A DNA stretch of 64,000 bases from an uncultured Mollicutes bacterium. GTDB lineage: Bacteria > Bacillota_I > Bacilli_A > ML615J-28 > CAG-313. Positions 4,541 to 30,328 of the stretch are shown piece by piece (within the stretch, counting starts at the first letter, position 1; each line of letters begins with the position of its first letter). A model generated the notes under the pieces. The model saw only the letters and a program-made list of their open reading frames with translations, did no database searches and had not been told where the DNA came from. The position numbers and the translations under genes were made by a program. The stretch covers positions 9,012-73,011 of the forward strand of contig URLJ01000001.1 in the NCBI GenBank assembly GCA_900548675.1, read 5' to 3'.

Positions 4541-5128
4541 AATTTCAACATTATAATCAATTTTAACTGTATTTGTTGGGACAACTAAAATTTGTCCTTT
4601 TTCTTTTGCATTTAATTCAATAATTTCGCCATATTCATGTCCCCATAACACATCTATCCAATTTGCTTTTCGTTGGCGTTTATCCATAATCTTTATTAAT
4701 TTTGGACTTTCTTCGTCCGTTTCTTTAATATAAATATTTTCACCTTGTATTGTCTGTAATTGTTTTCCATACTCAGTGTTAGCAAAAAATACATAATACA
4801 TTTCTTTCGTTGTTTCACTTGAGCCCGTTACAAAACCTGACCCCAATAGGAATGCGCCAGTTAAACTTGCATCTTCATATGTTTCAGTTTTAAATTCTAA
4901 ACCTGTAATTTCATATGCTGTTTCTTGAAATTCACTTTTAGTATCTTCACACGCATGATTTGCAATTGGCAATATAAGTAAGAATCCTGCTAACACTACG
5001 CATGCGCCCACAGCTATTTCCTCGTCCAACCAGTGAGCGATTAGTAAAGTAACAATGGTGACTACAATTATCATTATAATAAAATACAACATATTAAACC
5101 TCCTTATAAGTTTTATATAAACATTCAA
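4538..5128 (-). CDS. Hypothetical membrane protein
   Basis: N-terminal hydrophobic segments; the start may be the internal Met near 5092 to avoid overlap. Confidence 0.55.
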   Translation of the reverse strand: MNVYIKLIRRFNMLYFIIMIIVVTIVTLLIAHWLDEEIAVGACVVLAGFLLILPIANHACEDTKSEFQETAYEITGLEFKTETYEDASLTGAFLLGSGFVTGSSETTKEMYYVFFANTEYGKQLQTIQGENIYIKETDEESPKLIKIMDKRQRKANWIDVLWGHEYGEIIELNAKEKGQILVVPTNTVKIDYNVEI

Positions 5129-5783
5129 ATTTATTATTTAGAGGTATATCCAAATGCCAATGGCCAAAATACCATTTATCTATATTAACCATTTCATTTA
5201 TTGATTGAAGTCTACGTTGAGAATTGCTAATTTTAACTCCATTTATGTTTGAGAATACTGAAATTTGTGGAGTTATAGCAGCTGGACAATCATGTGATAG
5301 CATTATATCTATATGATTATTATCTCCTAAATTTCTTATAAAATGCCCTATATCAGTTGTAGTAATTTCTTCCTCTGGCCACCAACTAATTCCTTCTGTT
5401 CTATGCCATAAGTCTACCGAATTAGCTCCACCGCATACACCTATTCTTTTATTATTAATGTTATATACTTCACCTCTTAATAAGTGAATTACACCACTTG
5501 GTAATTTACCTGCGCGACCACCATTCCATTCAATAACCTCTTCTAATTCTCTAATTAAACGGAAATTTTCATGATTACCATCAACAAAAGCAACTGAAAA
5601 AGGTAAGTCTTCAATGATGCTAAAATTAAGTACAGTAGTTTTCTCATTCCAAATACAACCAAAATCACCTAAAACAATAACTAAATCATCTTTGGTAGCA
5701 TCTGGCAAATTGAAATTAAATAATCGTATTATATCACCGTGCAAATCACCTGTTATTATTATTCTATTTACTTTCTGTATCAT
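5094..5783 (-). CDS. Calcineurin-like metallophosphoesterase (Ser/Thr phosphatase family)
   Basis: Motifs GDLHG, GDFG, GNHE, and GHWH. Confidence 0.85.
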   Translation of the reverse strand: MIQKVNRIIITGDLHGDIIRLFNFNLPDATKDDLVIVLGDFGCIWNEKTTVLNFSIIEDLPFSVAFVDGNHENFRLIRELEEVIEWNGGRAGKLPSGVIHLLRGEVYNINNKRIGVCGGANSVDLWHRTEGISWWPEEEITTTDIGHFIRNLGDNNHIDIMLSHDCPAAITPQISVFSNINGVKISNSQRRLQSINEMVNIDKWYFGHWHLDIPLNNKFECLYKTYKEV

Positions 5784-9162: not shown

Positions 9163-9813
9163 CTAAACCTCCTTTATATAGTATTTTAATACTATTTTAT
9201 TATAATCTTCTATCCAATTCCAAACTTCTCTGCCATCTTCTGTTTTTAAATTGTCATAAAATCTATAACCATAGTAATCTCTACGTACTCTATCTGCTAC
9301 GTAATCAATTCCATACAATTTTAAATCTACAAGAATATAATCTATCATTGCACGAGTAACAAAATCCCAAATTGGATATTCTCCTGCACTTTCTCTGTTA
9401 TGTGCTTTATAATATTTATAAGGTTCGTCCCAGTTCCATTCAGAGCCTGCGCGTTTACCATAAACTTTTCCTGCACCAATCCAGTCAGCTATCATTTCAT
9501 ATACATATTGTCTTGGTATTCTGCAAGGTTTTGGATTTTGTTGGTTATCCCAATCCATCCAATACCATTGATGGTGTTTATTTTTTGCTTTGTGATGAAG
9601 CCATGCGGCTGAATAACCTTTTTCTTTCTTTTCTGCATCTATTGGTGAATAAGTACCTTGAAAATATCTTGCGCTTGGACCAAATTCAGTCCAAGAAAAT
9701 TTACTTAAATCGTGTACAATACCTTGCCAATATAAACCAAATTGAAAACAAACTTTTCCAACTTCTATTTTATGTTTAATTATTGTTTTTAAATGTTCAA
9801 AATATTTATTCAT
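9163..9813 (-). CDS. Hypothetical protein (Trp/Tyr-rich)
   Basis: ORF. Confidence 0.55.
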   Translation of the reverse strand: MNKYFEHLKTIIKHKIEVGKVCFQFGLYWQGIVHDLSKFSWTEFGPSARYFQGTYSPIDAEKKEKGYSAAWLHHKAKNKHHQWYWMDWDNQQNPKPCRIPRQYVYEMIADWIGAGKVYGKRAGSEWNWDEPYKYYKAHNRESAGEYPIWDFVTRAMIDYILVDLKLYGIDYVADRVRRDYYGYRFYDNLKTEDGREVWNWIEDYNKIVLKYYIKEV

Positions 9814-11080
9814 TAATTACCTCCTGTGCTTCTTCCATATCTGGCGCATCTGCGTTTTCTTTTATAATTCCTTCTAACACTTTAAAAGCAAATGATTTCT
9901 TTTTAAAAGCAGTAAAAACACTTTTATCTTCTAATCGAGCTACAACACCTTCGCTTACGTGAGTTTTTCCAATTGGGTCTTCTATATCTAACCATTTGTT
10001 TATTCTTTCATACATATCTTCTTGTGTTGTGAAAATAAATCTATCTAAATCCATTACTGTATTTAATCCCATTATTTCACATCTATGTTTTACAAGTGAC
10101 CAAGGATATTCAATGACTTCTCCATCCGGATTTGTCATTGTCATTCTGTAAACATACATTGCATTTTGTCCTTGCTCACAGCCATATGAGAAAGTAGTTT
10201 TAGCACCATATTTTTTAGTAAATTCTTTATCGTTCATTTTTTTATTATCAGCTATACCCATTATTGTTGTATTTTCGTTAGCCCAACCTACTATCTCGTA
10301 GTAAATTGTTTCACCTTTTAAAAGTCTTCCTTCTAATAAGCGATGATATTTTGCGCGAAAAGCATTGTCTCCATAAAATCCATCTTCGGCAAATTGAGTT
10401 AGCACAACTCTTCTAGTTCCTGTTACATATCTATAACGAGGAAATAATTTAAAAATAAATTGTTCAATTTTATTTTTACCAGCAGATGGCAAGTAAGCTG
10501 TTCTTCCAGAAGTTCCATGCATTTTTAAAGTTAAAGTAACTAAATCGCCAGGTTTAAATCTTTCAATATTGTAGTCAAGTTGTTCAGTATCTCTATGTTC
10601 TTCAAATAGTGGAAATTCATTTACTTTTCTTTTTTCTCTTTTAGTTTGCGCGCGAACCACGGATTTTTTACCTCTTGGTATATATTTTCTACAAATTTCT
10701 TGCCCGTCTAATACTGTAATTTGGTCTCCAAGTGATAAACTATTTACTACTTTTGTTCCAAGATAGTTTAAAGAACTTAATGGCATTACCAATCCATCTG
10801 AACGTTCGCCTCTTAGCTTAATTGCTTTTACATTTCTTTTATCTGGTTCTAAATAACCACCTATATTATTACCATTTTCATCTTTTTTCCTAACTAAATT
10901 ATTGGCTTCACAATATGACTCTGATAACTGTCCATCAGCTGGAAAATACAATACTATATCATCATCTTGTGAGTCTGCGCCAACAATTACTGTTGTATCA
11001 AATACATCTGCTAATACAAGTCTATCTGCATTAGGATGCTTTCTTACATTTTTTAATTTTGTTACATATCCACAATACAT
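9806..11080 (-). CDS. RNA ligase (Rnl2-like nucleotidyltransferase) fused to an N-terminal Trbp111/EMAP-II-like tRNA-binding OB domain
   Basis: N-terminus VRKHPNADRLVLADV...ERSDGLVMPLSSL is the tRNA-binding-domain signature. Motif I KMHGTSG (KxHG as in T4 Rnl2), motif III IYYEIVGW, motif IV EGVVARLED, motif V KKKSFAFKVLEG. Confidence 0.7.
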   Translation of the reverse strand: MYCGYVTKLKNVRKHPNADRLVLADVFDTTVIVGADSQDDDIVLYFPADGQLSESYCEANNLVRKKDENGNNIGGYLEPDKRNVKAIKLRGERSDGLVMPLSSLNYLGTKVVNSLSLGDQITVLDGQEICRKYIPRGKKSVVRAQTKREKRKVNEFPLFEEHRDTEQLDYNIERFKPGDLVTLTLKMHGTSGRTAYLPSAGKNKIEQFIFKLFPRYRYVTGTRRVVLTQFAEDGFYGDNAFRAKYHRLLEGRLLKGETIYYEIVGWANENTTIMGIADNKKMNDKEFTKKYGAKTTFSYGCEQGQNAMYVYRMTMTNPDGEVIEYPWSLVKHRCEIMGLNTVMDLDRFIFTTQEDMYERINKWLDIEDPIGKTHVSEGVVARLEDKSVFTAFKKKSFAFKVLEGIIKENADAPDMEEAQEVINE

Positions 11081-15899: not shown

Positions 15900-16742
15900 C
15901 TTTTGATAAAGCAGACTGTACCAAACTGCTTTTGTAATAGCTATCGTTGAGAGCCTTTACCTTCCTGCATCTTCACTCAAAGGTGAGCCGCGTACACCAT
16001 CTCTCAATATTAAACAGGGTCTATTGTTCCACTATTACATCAATAATCTTACATATCTCAGTTTAGTTTGTACCTCGTTACTCTTTATGAATAAGTATTT
16101 TCATACTGGAAGATTACAGAATACTTCCAACTAACAGTTCAACTCTGTAAGATAATTCACCTATCTTCATCTGGGAATATTTACTGTTAGAGCCTAAGCC
16201 ACGACATTTTCAACCCAACTCCAACTCGTCTTGCAATTAGCAAGTTTGCCAGAGCGTCCGCTTAGCTTCACTTTCTCACGACTAAACTCATCTTGAAACC
16301 AGACCTCTAATATATTTCCACCGAATTTCACTTGGAGCCACTTCCAACTCCTTTGGTCTGTGCCTTACGCCGTTGATAGCGCATTCAGCCATAATGACTA
16401 TTGTTCTTGTACTTTTTTGAGCTACCCGATTTCCACCACGAGGAGGTAAGTACACTGGAAATCATATTTGGTTTGGTGGGGCGGCACTCCCACATCTCTT
16501 ATAAGCCCTAAATCTTACCTATAATGGATTTTAACCATTCCTCCACAGTTGCCCGGCTGTCACGGACTCGAACCGTTCGATATTAGGGTTGATAGCTGCC
16601 TTTCTATCCTCAAACCTGCAATAGGCCGTTGCTGGTTATAACTTTTTCGTATCGCCGACACTCTCTCGCTACAAGAGCCGCTTGCCTAAATTCACTATTA
16701 GGTCTGTTACAGACTGTTTCGCATTTCACCTATCGCTATGTA
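15900..16742 (-). other. About 840-bp GC-enriched ORF-free block; candidate structured ncRNA or degenerate tRNA region
   Basis: No ORF above 20 aa with an RBS on the minus strand; a T-loop-like ggttcgagtcc (reverse complement at 16565-16575) lacks a matching acceptor. Confidence 0.3.
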
Positions 16743-20719: not shown

Positions 20720-20905
20720 TTATTGTTCAAAATCACCTTCGTAAAAAATTAAGCCTATTAACATTCCCAAAATTGAAGAAACTAATAATCCTCCTAAAAA
20801 ACTTGCTTGAAATGCCATCCAAGACATACTGATTGTACCTCCTGCAACACCTATAATTATTAAATAAAACCCAAGTTTTTTAAAAAATACCCTTGTCTTA
20901 CTCAT
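20720..20905 (-). CDS. Small membrane protein
   Basis: Two hydrophobic helices. Confidence 0.5.
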   Translation of the reverse strand: MSKTRVFFKKLGFYLIIIGVAGGTISMSWMAFQASFLGGLLVSSILGMLIGLIFYEGDFEQ

Positions 20906-20925
20906 TTCTTTCCTCCTATAATATA

Positions 20926-20954
20926 ATTATATAACAATTTTTATGTAAAATCAA
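20926..20954 (-). promoter_or_regulatory. Conserved early promoter cassette (minus)
   Basis: ttgattttacataaaaattgtta-tataat-tatattatagg. Confidence 0.6.
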
Positions 20955-21011
20955 CTTTATAAAAGGAATGCGCGAAAAGTAAGAAAATTATGCTTTCCGC
21001 GCCGTAGTCTA

Positions 21012-21218
21012 TTAATTTGTTAAATCTTTTACTGTGTTTTTTGTTGTGTCTATTGGATGTTCTACTGTTTGTTCAATTCCTCGCACGAAGCCTTTGTCAT
21101 CTTTTTTTACTATTTCGTAATTATTAACTAAGGTATAAGTTACACCTACTGTTAACATTATAGCTAGTATAATAAGAAGCCAATGCCACCAGTGCCAATG
21201 AAAATCTCTGTGTTCCAT
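21012..21218 (-). CDS. Small membrane protein (His/Trp-rich N-terminus)
   Basis: ORF with one transmembrane segment. Confidence 0.5.
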   Translation of the reverse strand: MEHRDFHWHWWHWLLIILAIMLTVGVTYTLVNNYEIVKKDDKGFVRGIEQTVEHPIDTTKNTVKDLTN

Positions 21219-21271
21219 AGCAAAACTCCTTTTATATATATTAAATCAAAAGAGGTTGCCCTCAATTGATT

Positions 21272-22789
21272 TTATAATCTAACAACATCATATATTGAAT
21301 CATTTAGTGTTTTTAACATTGTGTTATATGGGTCTTCATCCACCGCCATTAATACGCTTCTAAAAGCTGAAACAGATTGCCCACTTACCATTGCAATATT
21401 TTTTTGTTCGCATACTCCGTGATATACATCTTGTCTACTATCTACGTTCCAATATATTATTTTTGGAATAATATATCCGTGACGTTGAAATCTCATTGCA
21501 ATTTCATCCATTAGTTTGTTTTGTCTTGCAATTTCAGTATTTCCATACATTGATGAATAACGTGTTCCAGTTGCTCCATCAAATTCCATATCTGAAATTA
21601 TTACAATCGCTTTAGGCATATCTTCTTGTGTTAATTTGTTGTTAATAGCAGTTTGTAACACTAAATTAAACGCAGCTTCTATATTAGTATTGTCGACAAT
21701 TGCTGGAATGCTTCTAACTTTTTCAGCTAAATTTAAACCTTTTAACTCTACAAAATTTGGTTTTGATGAGAAAGTCATAAAATTATTATGCCAAGGTCCA
21801 TTATTTCTTTCAGCAAAGTAAATTGCTAATCCTATTGAAGTACAAATTGGTCTTCCACTCATTGAGCCAGAAGTGTCTGCCATTACTAATATATTGTTGT
21901 TTCCTTCAATATAATTTGGTAATGCTTTCCATTGTTCTTCAAGTACTTCATCCCATTTGTTAAAACTAAAATTACTGCTTCTCCAATTTTCTGACAATCC
22001 TGCGGCTTCCATTATATCATAAGGATATAATGTTTTTGCATTAATTTTTTCTTCTCCTGATTTTACTTTTTCAATGTACTCTTTAAATTTGATTAAATTA
22101 TGCTCTCCAAAAGCATTTCTATATTTTTTCATTGCCAATGAAGGTACTTCATTGTACACAATTTTATCCCATTCATTTTTGCTCATATTTCTTTCAACTA
22201 TATTAAGTTGTTTTCTTAATTTTGATAAAATTTGTCTATATTCTTTATATGAATAATGTAATTTTTTTGCAGTTAATTTACCTAATTTAGCGCTTTCGAT
22301 TGACACACCAGATGTTGACTTTAACCATTTTGCTAATAAACTAATTTGTTTACCTGCCTCAAGCGCAGCTAAATCAGCTTCCAATTGATTTTTTATAACA
22401 TCAAATGCTAAATCTTCCAATGGTGTTTTTACAAATTCATATAAATCATCCCATCTACCAAAAATAGGCACTAAATTAATATTTTTTGCCATAACTTCTT
22501 GATGATAGTTTGCTAAATATTTTATTAAAATACGAAATGTTCTTCTTTCTCCAAGTCCACCTCTAATATTTCTTGCATAAAATAACATTTTCATAGCTAA
22601 TAGTTGGTCTTCGGCAAAAGCTTTAATAAATTTCGTTTCAATTTCTTGTGAAGGTCTTGTTCTTAACGCACCAATTACTGCGAATAAATCTAATAAATCT
22701 GAATTTGTTGTTCTATATGCTATCGCTCCATTTTCTGTTAATGTTTCGTTTGTTTCATTTTTAATACTTTTTATAAAATTTTCACTCAT
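21272..22789 (-). CDS. von Willebrand factor A (vWA) domain protein with a long helical N-terminal region; possibly Ro60/TROVE-like
   Basis: MIDAS motif ILVMADTSGSMSG around residue 305, followed by IVIISDMEFDG; the N-terminal 300 aa are unassigned. Confidence 0.6.
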   Translation of the reverse strand: MSENFIKSIKNETNETLTENGAIAYRTTNSDLLDLFAVIGALRTRPSQEIETKFIKAFAEDQLLAMKMLFYARNIRGGLGERRTFRILIKYLANYHQEVMAKNINLVPIFGRWDDLYEFVKTPLEDLAFDVIKNQLEADLAALEAGKQISLLAKWLKSTSGVSIESAKLGKLTAKKLHYSYKEYRQILSKLRKQLNIVERNMSKNEWDKIVYNEVPSLAMKKYRNAFGEHNLIKFKEYIEKVKSGEEKINAKTLYPYDIMEAAGLSENWRSSNFSFNKWDEVLEEQWKALPNYIEGNNNILVMADTSGSMSGRPICTSIGLAIYFAERNNGPWHNNFMTFSSKPNFVELKGLNLAEKVRSIPAIVDNTNIEAAFNLVLQTAINNKLTQEDMPKAIVIISDMEFDGATGTRYSSMYGNTEIARQNKLMDEIAMRFQRHGYIIPKIIYWNVDSRQDVYHGVCEQKNIAMVSGQSVSAFRSVLMAVDEDPYNTMLKTLNDSIYDVVRL

Positions 22790-23379
22790 TTTAAACCTCC
22801 ATTTTCCTAAATAAAGACAAGGCGCTTATAACATTTCCTTTTGAGCAGGAAATTTAGGATTTGAACCTAAATAAACCAATAACGAATTTGCTGGATGCGC
22901 CTTTAAAACTAGGGACTGATATCATTTTTCGGACTACACGTCTGACTTAATATACAATAAATTGCTGGCTGTCCCTACAATATAATATTTTTAATTTAAC
23001 TCGTGTTTGAAAGATGTTCTTGGCATATTACTGGGGTCGCCTCAATCTTTCCTCCCACGACATTGTAAGCTTTTCGCATGGAGCGAAATACTTTCTAATT
23101 TGATGTTTTATCAAATTCCAAAATTACAAAAAATTGTAATACTGCTTTTACGCATTTGCTGTATGACCCCTTAGATTACTAAAAGTATGTGTAATTGTGT
23201 TCGATATTAACTTTGACACTTTGCTGGGCTCGTCTCTGTTAATATCTTGCACCTAATATGTTCTGGAGCTTACTCCTCGTAAGCATTGTTGGACAAACCA
23301 ACCTAATTTGTATCTAAAATACAAACTGTCTTTTTCAAGACGATTGCTGTGTGAGCCCTTATTTATTTTCTATAATATA
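22790..23379 (-). other. About 590-nt non-coding leader with a tRNA-like T-arm and mini-helix immediately upstream of the vWA gene (candidate Y-RNA-like or other ncRNA)
   Basis: Minus RNA uuuagguucaaauccuaaa (T-arm-like; reverse complement at 22852-22870), then uuuccugcucaaaaggaaa hairpin, then the RBS ggagg; no ORF above 30 aa. Confidence 0.3.
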
Positions 23380-23408
23380 ATTATAGCAGAAATTTTATTT
23401 AAAATCAA
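23380..23408 (-). promoter_or_regulatory. Conserved early promoter cassette (minus)
   Basis: ttgattttaaataaaatttctgc-tataat-tatattatag. Confidence 0.6.
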
Positions 23409-23518
23409 CTATTTAATTATAGATTTCCACTGTATAACCATAATGTTCTAATAATTGTTTCATATTAAAAACTCCTACTGGATTTGCGCTATGAATATAG
23501 ATTTTATTGCATTTAATA

Positions 23519-23728
23519 TTATTCTCCACTATTAGTTTTGCAATATCGTAACCAGTTTTTTCTTCGCCGTAAATCGTGGTCTAAATCTACAATATCAAAT
23601 CTATAAACTAATAAATTTTTAAGTGCTTGTTCATAATTACGAGCAATAGTTACTTTATTTATTTCTTCTTTCCAAATTTTTGGAAATCTTACATCATCAA
23701 CATATAGAATATTTTTCATAATTATCAC
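23519..23728 (-). CDS. Receiver (CheY-like) domain-like protein, N-terminal part; appears truncated by a frameshift at an A-run, with continuation in another frame down to about 23413
   Basis: N-terminus MKNILYVDD...FDIVDLDHDL; the adjacent frame encodes ...GYDIAKLIVENNIKCNKIYIHSANPVGVFNMKQLLEHYGYTVEIYN and ends at 23413-23415. Confidence 0.4.
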   Translation of the reverse strand: MIIMKNILYVDDVRFPKIWKEEINKVTIARNYEQALKNLLVYRFDIVDLDHDLRRRKNWLRYCKTNSGE

Positions 23729-23749
23729 TCACTTTCTTAATTTATAATA

Positions 23750-23779
23750 ATTATATTACAATTTTAACTTAAAATCAAA
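23750..23779 (-). promoter_or_regulatory. Conserved early promoter cassette (minus)
   Basis: ttgattttaagttaaaattgtaa-tataat-tattataaatt. Confidence 0.6.
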
Positions 23780-23786
23780 TTTTTAA

Positions 23787-23862
23787 TGGAGTCCTGTATT
23801 GGAATTGAACCAATGATAACGGTTTTGCAGACCGTCGCCTTAACCAACTTGGCTAACAGGAC
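23787..23862 (-). tRNA. tRNA-Cys(GCA)
   Basis: Perfect acceptor gtcctgt/acaggac, anticodon loop ctGCAaa, T-arm attggttcaattccaat, CCA encoded. Confidence 0.8.
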
Positions 23863-26852: not shown

Positions 26853-27189
26853 TGGTGGAGGTAACGAGAATCGAACTCGTGTCCCATTATATTTAATAAT
26901 AAACTTCTACAAGTTTAGTTTATTTTCAATAAATTTTTAATTTTAAAATAAACAAAGTCAATTAAAAATTAGTTGTTAATAAAAATACTTCTACAACTAT
27001 TAAAATATTTTGTTCCGTTGTTCTTCCATTACGAAAGGAGGTGATACATATATTAAACTGTTCTAGTCAAAGACTAGGCAGCCATTAAAACTTCGTTTGC
27101 TCTTATTCTTTTTGAACTTTTAAAGTGTCCTGTTCACCACTACTTGCTTATTATTATTTCCTACAATAGTCGAAACCAAATATACCCCC
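26853..27189 (-). ncRNA. ssrA: tmRNA (SsrA-like), encoded tag peptide A-N-E-V-L-M-A-A
   Basis: 5' end GGGGGUAUAUUUGGUUUCGACUAUUGUAGG closely parallels E. coli GGGGCUGAUUCUGGAUUCGACGGGAUUUGCG. Resume codon GCA at 27098-27100, reading GCA AAC GAA GUU UUA AUG GCU GCC UAG (E. coli reads GCAAACGAC...) with a hairpin after the stop. 3' end is T-arm acgagttcgattctcgt, then acceptor tacctcc pairing with the 5' ggggguа, then ACCA. Confidence 0.7.
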
Positions 27190-27649: not shown

Positions 27650-28213
27650 TTAATTACAACTTTTTAAATTCCAATCTTCTGCCCAACAAATGTTTTCATG
27701 AACATACTTATCTTTGTAAATTTCTTCAATCTCTGCAAGTGTAACAGGTTCATAATTAACACATTCTACACTTACACAGTACATATTTTTATGTCTTACA
27801 TATTTATTATGAATATGTCCATAAATCATTTTCGCGCCATAATACATACCTGCATAATCGATAATTGGATAATGAGAAAGTATAATTTGCTGTTTATCCT
27901 CATTTACTTGAAGATAATCACATACTTTTTCAAAACACTCATCAAAATCGCGCTGACCAGCATACTTATCGTGATTCCCTTTAATTAAAATTTTCTTTCC
28001 ATTTAATTGTTTCAAAATTTTAATTGCGTCTTGTTTACTCATTTTAAAACAAAAATCACCTAAAATATATACTGTATCTTCGTTTGTTACTTTATTATTC
28101 CATTTTTCAATTAATTGTTTATTCATATCTTCTGTATTTTCAAAAGGTCTATTACAAATTTGAATAATACGTTCATGACCAAAATGCGGGTCTGCTATAA
28201 AAAAGTTAGCCAT
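27650..28213 (-). CDS. Calcineurin-like metallophosphoesterase
   Basis: Motifs ADPHFGH, ILGDF, GNHD, and GHIHN. Confidence 0.85.
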   Translation of the reverse strand: MANFFIADPHFGHERIIQICNRPFENTEDMNKQLIEKWNNKVTNEDTVYILGDFCFKMSKQDAIKILKQLNGKKILIKGNHDKYAGQRDFDECFEKVCDYLQVNEDKQQIILSHYPIIDYAGMYYGAKMIYGHIHNKYVRHKNMYCVSVECVNYEPVTLAEIEEIYKDKYVHENICWAEDWNLKSCN

Positions 28214-29035: not shown

Positions 29036-30328
29036 CTAACTATATAATGGGTGTTTTTTACATAATTGTGCTACTTCTTCCTTTAATAAAATTTTTTGAT
29101 TTTCATCCATATCATTTGTAGTTAATACAATTGAAATAATACGAGCAATTTCTTTCATATCGGCTGTGTTAAAACCTCTTGTTGTTACAGCTGCTGTTCC
29201 TATTCTTATACCACTTGTAACCATTGGTCTTTCTGGGTCATTTGGAACTGCATTTTTGTTTAGTGTAATATTAATTTCTTCTAAACGATTTTGAGCTTCT
29301 ATTCCAGTAATTCCAACGTTTCTTAAATCTATTAATAATAAATGATTATCTGTTCCACCTGTAATTAGATTAAAACCTCTTTCTTTTAATTCATTTGCTA
29401 AAGTATAACAATTGTCCACTATTCTTTTTTGATAATCAATAAATTCAGGTTTTAATGCCTCTGCAAAGCATACTGCTTTTGCAGCAATAATGTGTTCAAG
29501 CGGTCCACCTTGAGTACCTGGAAATACAGCACTATCAATTTTTTTACCATATTCTTCTTTACATAAAATAATTCCACCACGAGGTCCTCTTAATGTTTTA
29601 TGAGTTGTAGAAGTAACTACATCTGCATAAGGAATTGGGCTTTGATGTAATCCTGCTGCAACTAATCCTGCAATATGAGCCATATCTACCATAAAAATTG
29701 GTTTTTCAAAAAATTCGTCATCTTCCACAGCTTTATTAATCATATCTCTCATTTTTGCAAAATCAATTTCTCTTGGATACGCACTAGCACCTGCAATAAT
29801 TAATTTAGGTCTGCTCATACGCATCATATCATCAAAATTTTCATAATCTATATAACCTTTCTCATCTGTTCTATATTCTACAATATTATAAATTTTCCCA
29901 CTTTGATTTACAGGTGAACCGTGTGATAGATGTGCGCCGTTTTGTAAGCTCATTGTAAGTATAGTATCTCCTGGTTTTAGAAAAGCTTGATAAACCGCTA
30001 AGTTAGCTTGTGCACCTGAATGAGGTTGAACATTTGCATATTCAGCTCCAAACAATTTCTTTAATCTATCAATTGCTAACTGTTCTATATTATCTACAAA
30101 TTTACATCCACCATAATATCTTCGACCTGGGTATCCTTCAGCATACTTATTTGTTAAATAACTTCCCATTGCTTCCATAACAGCTGGACTAACAAAATTT
30201 TCTGAGGCTATCAATTCTATATTAGTTTGTTGGCGTTCTTTTTCTGCCATTATATTAGCATAGACTTCAGGGTCTTGCATTAATAAATTATAAAATTCTG
30301 TCATTTTCTTCCTCCAATTTTCTATCAA
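29036..30328 (-). CDS. glyA: Serine hydroxymethyltransferase
   Basis: [37 protein letters not shown] and PLP-lysine region [15 protein letters not shown]. Confidence 0.95.

Follow-up and report, generated by a model that had tools for sequence, protein, structure and literature searches.

The closest described counterparts of the locus reported here are the Ro60 ribonucleoproteins (RNPs), in which a protein made of a helical domain together with a von Willebrand factor A (vWA) domain with a metal ion-dependent adhesion site (MIDAS) is accompanied by at least one non-coding RNA gene within a few kilobases on the same strand. In Y RNAs and in YrlA (RF02553), the RNA of the Salmonella rsr-yrlBA-rtcBA operon that encodes the Ro60 protein Rsr, base-pairing between the 5′ and 3′ ends forms a stem that bears a conserved protein-binding motif, the Ro-binding motifs having been defined as GGUCCGA or GNCGAAN0-1G in the terminal stem (PMC4201824). 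The variable part of YrlA mimics tRNA (PMC4201824), with a T-arm and an elbow, and RNA-repair genes lie near the rsr gene. The principle is already known to extend to phages (PMC4201824; PMC12135203): phiRo60 of Thermus phage phiLo has two Yrl RNAs, Yrl1 and Yrl2, directly 5′ of its gene, and its binding to RNA and PNPase has been shown experimentally (PMC12135203). Here, we describe a locus in a 64,000-nucleotide (nt) stretch (referred to as the window) from an uncultured Mollicutes bacterium (assembly GCA_900548675.1, contig URLJ01000001.1, positions 9,012 to 73,011), where a gene for a 505-residue DUF2828/DUF7788 protein is preceded by an array of four structured RNAs, U1 to U4. The locus probably encodes a Ro60/Y-RNA-like RNP system in which the protein belongs to another family and the RNAs form a new one.

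All the traits listed above for Ro60 (Rsr)/YrlA recur in this locus, namely the protein with a predicted helical domain and a vWA/MIDAS domain, the same-strand RNAs within a few kilobases, RNA ends that pair into a stem with a conserved motif (for which the binding role is putative here), a variable part that can mimic tRNA (the T-arm of U4), and RNA-repair genes nearby. In contrast, Ro60 belongs to Pfam TROVE whereas the protein of the window is DUF2828, and the motif GNCGAA or GGUCCGA of Y RNA and YrlA is replaced by a terminal stem, P1, combined with the sequence ACAGCAA. Unlike YrlA, the RNAs described here form arrays of up to about nine units and are transcribed as the leader of the gene, and in some tRNA-like genes with an open acceptor end a capped-hairpin form of the module takes the anticodon position, which is the reverse topology. 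phiRo60 is likewise phage-encoded with RNAs directly upstream and, probably being the protein of PDB entry 9kop, is the best structural match of the model of the window protein; its deposit is annotated as TROVE domain-containing and its RNAs carry CGAA motifs, whereas the window system is known from sequence and predicted fold. Neither a function or RNA partner for DUF2828 nor the P1+ACAGCAA motif is described in Rfam 15 or in the literature searched, in which subscription papers are thinly covered. Judged by these comparisons of sequence, the new element is a P1+ACAGCAA RNA family, not in Rfam, that is tied to DUF2828. One further phage system, the protein-RNA anti-CRISPR AcrIIIA1 of the S. 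epidermidis phage Twillingate, was considered as a relative and rejected, its protein being an unrelated one of 10 kDa.

Organisation of the transcription unit

The gene and its leader lie on the minus strand and comprise the following features, given from promoter to stop codon.

23380 to 23408, minus strand: promoter of the RNA-array/DUF2828 transcription unit, from a consensus scan
23224 to 23360, minus strand: U1, about 137 nt; P1 GGGCUC/GAGCCC; ACAGCAA at 23350-23344; several interior hairpins; 3′ end ...CCCAG
23031 to 23172, minus strand: U2, about 142 nt; P1 GGGGUC/GACCCC; ACAGCAA at 23162-23156; several interior hairpins; 3′ end ...CCCCAG
22909 to 22977, minus strand: U3, about 69 nt; P1 UAGGGAC/GUCCCUA; CCAGCAA at 22968-22962; 3′ end ...CCCUAG
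22818 to 22904, minus strand: U4, about 87 nt, YrlA-like; P1 AAGGCGC/GCGCCUU; CCAGCAA at 22894-22888; 3′ end ...CCUUG
22796 to 22800, minus strand: Shine-Dalgarno (SD) sequence GGAGG, 6 nt 5′ of the ATG and 17 nt 3′ of the terminal G of U4
21272 to 22789, minus strand: DUF2828+DUF7788 gene, 505 aa, ATG start, from the open reading frame (ORF) call
21905 to 22789, minus strand: first part of the coding sequence (residues 1-295), DUF2828 domain, alpha-helical, with a predicted fold resembling TROVE (Pfam, AlphaFold2, Foldseek)
21272 to 21904, minus strand: coding sequence part 2, residues 296-505 and stop, DUF7788 with a vWA fold and MIDAS (Pfam, invariant residues, hhalign)
21877 to 21863, minus strand: codons of the MIDAS residues D305-x-S307-x-S309

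A first-pass annotation of this DNA had proposed the promoter, a leader of about 590 nt free of ORFs and a 505-residue protein with a DTSGSM MIDAS motif, and these elements were all confirmed. The promoter is of the sigma-70 type, with a -35 TTGATT (23408-23403), a 17-nt spacer and a TG-extended -10 TATAAT (23385-23380), matching 10 of 12 consensus positions in addition to the TG extension; in alignment A4, five relatives (protein identity 76-84%) retain both hexamers. From the promoter to the start codon the longest minus-strand ORF does not exceed 34 aa, the GC content of the leader (0.32-0.36) is slightly above that of the flanking coding DNA, and no terminator-like site was found on the minus strand within the scanned region 20900-23800. 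DTSGSM corresponds to residues 305-310 and belongs to a full DxSxS...T...D motif.

The same annotation had described the leader as a hairpin pair plus spacer. Its T-arm-like sequence UUUAGGUUCAAAUCCUAAA (22871-22853, minus strand) and the second hairpin UUUCCUGCUCAAAAGGAAA that directly follows (22852-22834) are indeed present, whereas the remainder is no spacer: the leader is an array of four discrete units, each closed by a P1 stem with (A/C)CAGCAA directly 3′ of the P1 5′ strand. In the order U1 to U4 the units start with AAGGGCUCAC-ACAGCAA, AAGGGGUCAU-ACAGCAA, UAGGGACAG-CCAGCAA and AAGGCGCAU-CCAGCAA, and they end with the complement of their own start followed by (A/U)G (GAGCCCAG, GACCCCAG, GUCCCUAG and GCGCCUUG). 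In the predicted folds the terminal stem closes a branched interior, and the units are more stable than dinucleotide shuffles, with z-scores of -4.13 (U1), -3.94 (U2), -2.5 (U3) and -3.75 (U4). In U4, CCAGCAA is succeeded by a conserved UGG and then by the T-arm-like hairpin, whose loop is UUCAAAU, abutting the second hairpin. This is the topology of YrlA, in which a putative protein-binding stem at the ends is combined with a T-arm and then a closed hairpin. Rfam 15 returned nothing relevant from any family on the leader (22700-23520) at E ≤ 10, and neither RF00005 nor ARAGORN called a tRNA within 22790-23420, U1-U4 all failing the RF00005 model.

Conservation in close relatives

A common gene order was found in four contigs with 76-84% protein identity, consisting of a gene for cREC_REC (a predicted cyclic-phosphate-processing Rec domain), a gap of about 560-620 nt, the DUF2828 gene and an ORF of 68-70 aa; three of the contigs additionally carry a helicase farther upstream. 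Alignment A4 of the gap revealed conservation of the promoter, the P1 stems, the ACAGCAA motifs, the U4 T-loop and the ribosome-binding site (RBS), and divergence, with indels, of the unit interiors. The P1 and ACAGCAA of U1 are kept in the relatives and also in locus L088, and a compensatory exchange of GGGCUC/GAGCCC for GAGCCC/GGGCUC occurs in L084. For U2, GGGGTCA.ACAGCAA and GAGGCGACCCCAG are invariant in five relatives, and a U2-like unit is found in L087 and, with a variant stem, in L088. U3 is present in four of five relatives, L084 being the one without it.

U4 offers the most detailed picture. Its P1 changes in a compensatory manner from GGCGC/GCGCC to GGCAC/GUGCC, and its T-stem appears as UAGG/CCUA, UUGG/CCAA, CAGG/CCUG and CUGG/CCAG across the relatives. 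RNAalifold on seven relatives returned 7 base pairs (bp) of P1 and a 5-bp T-stem with three covarying pairs, and the second hairpin, the sequence of which differs in every relative, is always retained. As a separate observation, the spacer right 3′ of U2 (about 23030-23012, minus strand; A4 columns about 453-470), UAAUAUGCCAAGA, is conserved as strongly as the module, with ATGCCAA invariant in five relatives.

Consensus and covariation of the module

Alignment of 75 distinct units from related loci gave the consensus 5′-WW[RNGRYRCUU]A-CAGCAA ... [AAGYRUCNU]G-AA-3′, in which P1 measures 7-9 bp, (A/C)CAGCAA is single-stranded and an unpaired G stands directly 3′ of the P1 3′ strand. Invariant among the 75 units are one G-C pair of P1, CAGC and the final A of the motif, and the unpaired 3′ G, while A stands at the position preceding CAGC and at the fifth motif position in 71 of them. 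Variants of the module were noted in L023 (about 2700-2990 and 3′ of its gene) and in U4 of L082 and L084, with ACAGCUA in place of ACAGCAA in some units. The smallest form noted is a 35-nt unit in L012 (about 2955-2990), in which P1 closes the loop AACAGCAAAUUAAAA and which could serve as a minimal binding substrate.

Covariation was measured on a seed alignment, A2, of 22 diverse units of 50-75 nt with all ends in register. Eight of the nine P1 pairs vary on both sides and the remaining G-C pair is invariant; 94% of the P1 cells are paired, versus 38-44% with a slid partner, and the covariation score is 0.739 versus 0.25 in shuffles and about 0.1 in slid controls. Because the units of A2 had been chosen for complementarity, a covariance model, R1, was built and searched without that filter, and on the 75 distinct units found by it P1 is 90.8% paired with a covariation score of 0.591 versus 0.22. 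Two other procedures were dropped: a best-9-mer-partner test within 250 nt, for which the shuffled null was too high and which gave way to alignment-based pair counts, and an anchor-based complementarity test, which was mis-anchored with a weak signal and was replaced by pair counts against slid and shuffled controls.

When R1 was run on the whole window, either strand, U4 was the best match (22.4 bits; E = 0.0081 for 64 kb and 1e-4 for an 801-nt region) and U3 the second best (22907-22979, minus strand; 16.2 bits; E = 0.27 for 64 kb and 0.0034 for the 801-nt region). U1 and U2 gave no R1 match because their interiors are too long for the model. No further copy of the module was found in the 64-kb window besides those of the leader.

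Linkage of the module to DUF2828 genes

The relation between RNA and gene was followed in two collections, a viral set of 80 loci whose proteins are 46-56% identical to the window protein, and a genome set of 80 loci from bacterial genomes and metagenome-assembled genomes with protein identity down to 32%. About 75 of the 80 viral loci have one to nine copies of RGRYNNNN(A/U)ACAGCAA in the 1 kb upstream of the gene. The regular expression G[AG][CT]N5CAGCAA matched the gene strand 276 times in 557 kb, with 259 of these matches no more than 1.2 kb upstream, versus 9 on the opposite strand. With R1 at E ≤ 0.01, 180 matches were obtained in 72 of the 80 viral loci and 70 in 40 of the 80 genome loci; all 250 share the strand of the gene, almost all of them immediately 5′ of it and a few shortly 3′ of it, and they reach loci with 32-40% protein identity. 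In the unit nearest the gene (where it is among the aligned matches), 12-48 nt separate the conserved 3′ G from the start codon; in a gut-phage clade the SD sequence begins 3 nt after this G. In one viral locus (L001, 870-1988) the RNA array is tandemly duplicated with a period of 727 nt, as seen from the R1 pairs 870/1597, 935/1662, 1134/1861 and 1195/1922.

A reverse test, independent of the protein, was made by searching IMG/VR with the RNA-only pattern AAGACNNNTACAGCAAN{25,55}GTCTTG. At least 119 stretches matched, and among the matches listed 60 carry a DUF2828 homologue; motif and gene are on the same strand in 60/60 of these, mostly within 1 kb, with units 3′ of the gene in about 20. 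Cultured phages illustrate both positions: Staphylococcus phage 6ec (NC_024355) has three units immediately 3′ of a gene annotated as 'RNA-binding protein', and Bacillus phage vB_BcoS-136 (NC_071049) has units 5′ of the gene behind their own promoter and others within a tRNA array. At the level of sequence, the association of the RNA module with the DUF2828 gene family is overwhelming and extends to hundreds of further phage and prophage loci, and this gene is the only constant partner of the module.

Variable bodies and tRNA-like settings

The module was found in four settings. In the first, short units of 35-75 nt contain one interior hairpin, often with a 7-nt loop of the anticodon-loop form YU-NNN-R-N; such loops (CUGUUAA, CUUUUAA, CUGCUAA, CUGUAAA and CUGAAAA) occur in 21 of the 75 distinct units versus 0.55 expected from shuffles, many of these units being phylogenetically related. 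The second setting, exemplified by U4, has a T-arm-like hairpin inside the unit, and the third, exemplified by U1 and U2, is a long unit with several hairpins. In the fourth setting, seen at many loci, the module is circularly permuted, so that the P1 3′ strand comes first and is joined by 1-3 nt to the 5′ strand, giving a capped hairpin followed by ACAGCAA within a tRNA-like gene.

These permuted forms are close to tRNA in architecture. A T-loop lies downstream in 21 of 26 distinct cases and a canonical D-arm upstream in most, and the Rfam tRNA model scores them at 38-47 bits with acceptor, D, 5-bp anticodon stem and T arms aligned. The 7-nt anticodon loop, however, is replaced by 38-52 nt bearing the module, in the reverse of the U4 topology, and ARAGORN made no call on these genes. 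U4 shares with tRNA (RF00005) the canonical T-loop UUCAAAU on a covarying stem. The tRNA-like genes with embedded units lie up to several kb from the DUF2828 gene and also in tRNA arrays. Rfam searches of five related loci gave tRNA matches only, apart from one YrlA match of 31 bits, well below the gathering score of 69, at a site shared with two true tRNAs. The range of settings shows the module to be portable, and tRNA-shaped scaffolds bear it in more than one topology.

One alternative is that the units have no dedicated function and represent tRNA genes that decayed or were rearranged, or hairpins of a generic kind between the genes of a phage region full of tRNAs. In its favour, tRNA genes abound in the window and at many related loci, a T-arm is present in U4 and the tRNA model recognises the embedded forms, but the CAGCA.A core and the G-C pair are invariant across loci with 32-55% protein identity, P1 changes in a compensatory manner, strand and position are tied to one gene family, and the module is found nowhere else in the window. 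This explanation is strongly disfavoured because the motif is invariant, P1 covaries and the module is linked to the gene, and we regard it as extremely improbable.

A second alternative is a purely cis-acting leader, in which P1+ACAGCAA elements would be operators in the 5′ untranslated region through which the DUF2828 protein, or some other factor, controls translation or stability of the mRNA that contains them, with no free small RNAs. The placement of the units between promoter and RBS without a terminator speaks for it, as does the short distance between the 3′ G of the gene-proximal unit and the start codon or, in the gut-phage clade, the SD sequence. Against it, 6ec and about 20 of the 60 listed reverse-test loci have units 3′ of the gene, other units are embedded in tRNA-like genes up to several kb off and in tRNA arrays, and the interiors are under structural selection, as seen in the covarying T-arm and second hairpin and in the excess of anticodon-like loops. 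Units downstream of the gene and inside distant tRNA-like genes weaken the model such that we consider it quite unlikely as a full account. In particular, since the 6ec units are downstream and the module also resides inside tRNA-like genes, the RNAs are more than a 5′ leader. Control in cis would be compatible with autoregulation as an added role of an RNP.

Protein family and predicted fold

The N-terminal part of the 505-residue protein matches Pfam DUF2828 (PF11443; 4.6e-44, 151.4 bits, cut-off 29) and the C-terminal part DUF7788 (PF25043; 7e-36, 124 bits, cut-off 27.1); a VWA_2 match (0.0022) is below its cut-off. The protein also matches PHROG 850, 'RNA-binding protein', at 2.4e-129. Residues D305, S307, S309, T368 and D400 are invariant in alignments of 25 and 28 homologues, so the MIDAS is complete, and these residues align with DVSASM of Ro60. 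The family is large, with more than 7800 homologues in a word-indexed search and 6635 clusters at 50% identity (E ≤ 1e-3) in an exhaustive one.

A PDB sequence search, with the single protein and with a profile, matched no solved structure. An AlphaFold2 (AF2) model was obtained with a predicted local distance difference test (pLDDT) score of 80.8 and a predicted template modelling (pTM) score of 0.79, consisting of helices at about residues 30-290 and an alpha/beta domain at 300-500. In a Foldseek comparison with the PDB, the best match of this model was 9kop, deposited as a TROVE domain-containing protein (E = 3.4e-8, TM 0.52/0.56, 545 columns) that is probably phiRo60, and the second was human Ro60 (9nf8_A; E = 5.7e-7, TM 0.51/0.49, 566 columns), both over the full length; all later matches cover the vWA domain only, with TMq of about 0.2. 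The nearest models in BFVD come from phages and giant viruses and are DUF2828/DUF7788 proteins, and a 'Ro-like RNA binding protein' of a Gordonia phage (mycobacteriophage-type) is among the fold matches (E = 1.6e-5). The DUF2828/DUF7788 proteins of giant eukaryotic viruses (Pithovirus, Marseillevirus, Mimiviridae and CroV) have the same predicted fold, at TM 0.63-0.83.

Profile-profile comparison was made with hhalign between a 28-sequence DUF2828 alignment and a TROVE alignment of three sequences, the human one checked against 9nen_A and the Xenopus and Deinococcus ones taken from printed alignments. Residues 249-464 were aligned with Ro60 314-528 at a probability of 55% (E = 1.2e-4), in a register that runs from the 'hP(F/Y)' helix through the MIDAS to the C-terminus and thus spans the last helix and the vWA domain. 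The probability was 3% when the shallow alignment A1 was compared with human Ro60 alone and rose to 55% with the broader profiles. Canonical TROVE members are themselves very divergent, phiRo60 being found from human Ro60 only at E = 0.005.

Proposed RNP and its function

We infer the following mechanism for the locus. One promoter would give rise to a transcript comprising the four structured RNAs and the DUF2828/DUF7788 mRNA, and the units would be cut out of the leader. The DUF2828 protein would bind the P1+ACAGCAA module in the way Ro60 binds the conserved stem of Y RNA. The variable tRNA-like bodies would then be the working ends, which may tether the protein to enzymes that recognise tRNA shape or compete for such enzymes, in a role that could be tRNA or RNA quality control or repair in the phage, or protection from host defences that target RNA. 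Binding would probably also feed back on translation of the DUF2828 protein; autoregulation is a likely additional role because the gene-proximal unit abuts the RBS, with its 3′ end 12-48 nt from the start codon.

The module could instead be read by a factor other than the DUF2828 protein, such as a host protein, an RNase that processes the RNAs, a repair enzyme or the phage RNA ligase, with the DUF2828 protein acting in the same pathway and not binding directly. The conserved unpaired 3′ G, with A/U-rich sequence after it, might mark a site of cleavage, an idea that comes from the cleavage preferences of RNase Y, and an RNA ligase, cREC, a CCA-adding enzyme or a DHH protein is encoded next to some of the loci. 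None of these neighbours is family-wide, however, cREC being confined to the close clade, and the DUF2828 gene is the one partner that does not change; moreover, the closest solved folds are those of RNA-binding proteins that bind such stems. An alternative reader of the module is accordingly an improbable option, and direct binding by the DUF2828 protein is the preferred one.

Several further results weigh against the Ro60-like RNP. On the protein side, Pfam TROVE gave no match at E ≤ 1, and the TROVE-like N-terminal domain derives from one predicted model with TM of about 0.5 and a root-mean-square deviation of 8-10 Å, the model of the N-terminal domain by itself having a pLDDT of 52.7, too poor for a fold search. 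The profile-profile similarity to Ro60 is modest and misses this domain, and since hhalign covers the last helix and the vWA domain, the N-terminal relation is one of predicted fold. The earlier suggestion of a TROVE-like N-terminus is therefore supported at the level of the predicted fold, whose best matches are 9kop and Ro60, and finds no echo in Pfam TROVE or, for this domain, in hhalign.

On the RNA side, the Rfam Y_RNA (RF00019) and YrlA (RF02553) models, which the annotation had proposed for the leader, have no match within 22700-23520 at E ≤ 10, and GGUCCGA and GNCGAA are absent from the P1 region of U1-U4; what stands of the claim that the leader holds Y-RNA-like RNAs is the presence of four units with paired ends and the T-arm of U4. 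U1 and U2 were assigned by eye and conservation and not by R1, and the whole-window score of U3 is weak (E = 0.27). The seed A2 was selected for complementarity and model-based alignments lean towards structure. R1 at E ≤ 0.01 has no match in 8 of 80 viral and 40 of 80 genome loci, and among the listed reverse-test matches 59 of 119 stretches show no DUF2828 gene, many of them being short-flanked; a portion could have matched by chance or be remote from the gene. The covariation, the gene linkage and the fold similarity support the initial reading of the locus as a Ro60/Y-RNA-like phage module.

A bolder version of the RNP reading is possible, but in our estimate unlikely. P1+ACAGCAA might serve a Ro-like phage protein as a portable handle for carrying tRNA mimics, with the mimics being look-alikes of anticodon stem-loops (GUU, UUU, GUA, GAA and GCU loops), T-arm/acceptor mimics and anticodon-less tRNA bodies. 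These would act as decoys or adaptors against defences that target tRNA, such as anticodon nucleases, or would recruit ligase and end-healing activities to damaged phage or host tRNAs. If true, thousands of phages and possibly giant viruses would possess an RNP of a new class, devoted to anti-defence or RNA repair.

Genomic neighbourhood

Several RNA-related genes accompany the locus in the window. The window contains 18 tRNA genes and a tmRNA, all but two of the tRNAs being in the same strand block, which also holds an RNA ligase (9806-11080, minus strand; PHROG 968, 1.9e-69) and a Dda-like helicase. Two calcineurin-like metallophosphoesterases of this block are encoded at 5094-5783 and 27650-28213, both on the minus strand. 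The phage-borne tmRNA (26853-27189, minus strand; 99 bits) specifies the tag peptide ANEVLMAA*. The gene upstream of the promoter is the following.

23429 to 23728, minus strand: cREC_REC gene, split by a frameshift (PF20274, 2.8e-7 for the 69-aa N-terminal part)

The N-terminal part of this gene ends in ...DLDHDLRRRKNW..., whereas a different frame encodes the conserved C-terminus, YIHSANPVGVFNMKQLLEHYGYTVEIYN*, so that the split copy is either a pseudogene or an assembly error; in L081-L084 the gene is intact (96-101 aa). The cREC_REC domain has been linked to RNA ligases (PMC7824862). Ligase, phosphoesterases, tRNAs, tmRNA and cREC would, by their sequence assignments, constitute an RNA-repair-type gene set. 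Synteny with cREC_REC was rejected as a family-wide feature, as it holds only in the close clade, and other DUF2828 loci have different RNA-related neighbours or none. Among the former, the neighbours at L287 (920-2272), L288 (411-1445) and the upstream ORF of L003 are a CCA-adding enzyme plus RlaP nucleotidyltransferase or a DHH/DHHA1 (NrnA-like) protein.

Other features of the window were also recorded. A skipping-rope RNA (RF02924) at 16468-16618 on the minus strand scores 45.7 bits against a gathering score of 36.7 and has a 73-nt insertion in its central hairpin; an identity of U1-U4 with this class was rejected, as the consensus differs. Directly 3′ of it (16407-16463, minus strand) is a weak match to the HDV-F-prausnitzii ribozyme (24.4 bits, the gathering score being 44; E = 0.021 for a search of 501 nt). 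A serine hydroxymethyltransferase is phage-encoded at 29036-30328 on the minus strand (Pfam SHMT, 2.9e-159).

Significance

The predicted RNP can be tested at once since cultured carriers exist, namely Staphylococcus phages 6ec and SEP9 and Bacillus phage vB_BcoS-136. For the DUF2828/DUF7788 family, which spans the 6635 clusters in phages, prophages and giant viruses, the present analysis would provide a concrete and testable role as a Ro60-like RNP, and it would extend the principle of Ro and Y RNA to proteins outside TROVE. A further outcome is a collection of tRNA mimics in phages, among them tRNA-like genes that carry a putative protein-binding handle in place of the anticodon loop, which may bear on how phages manage and protect the tRNA pool.

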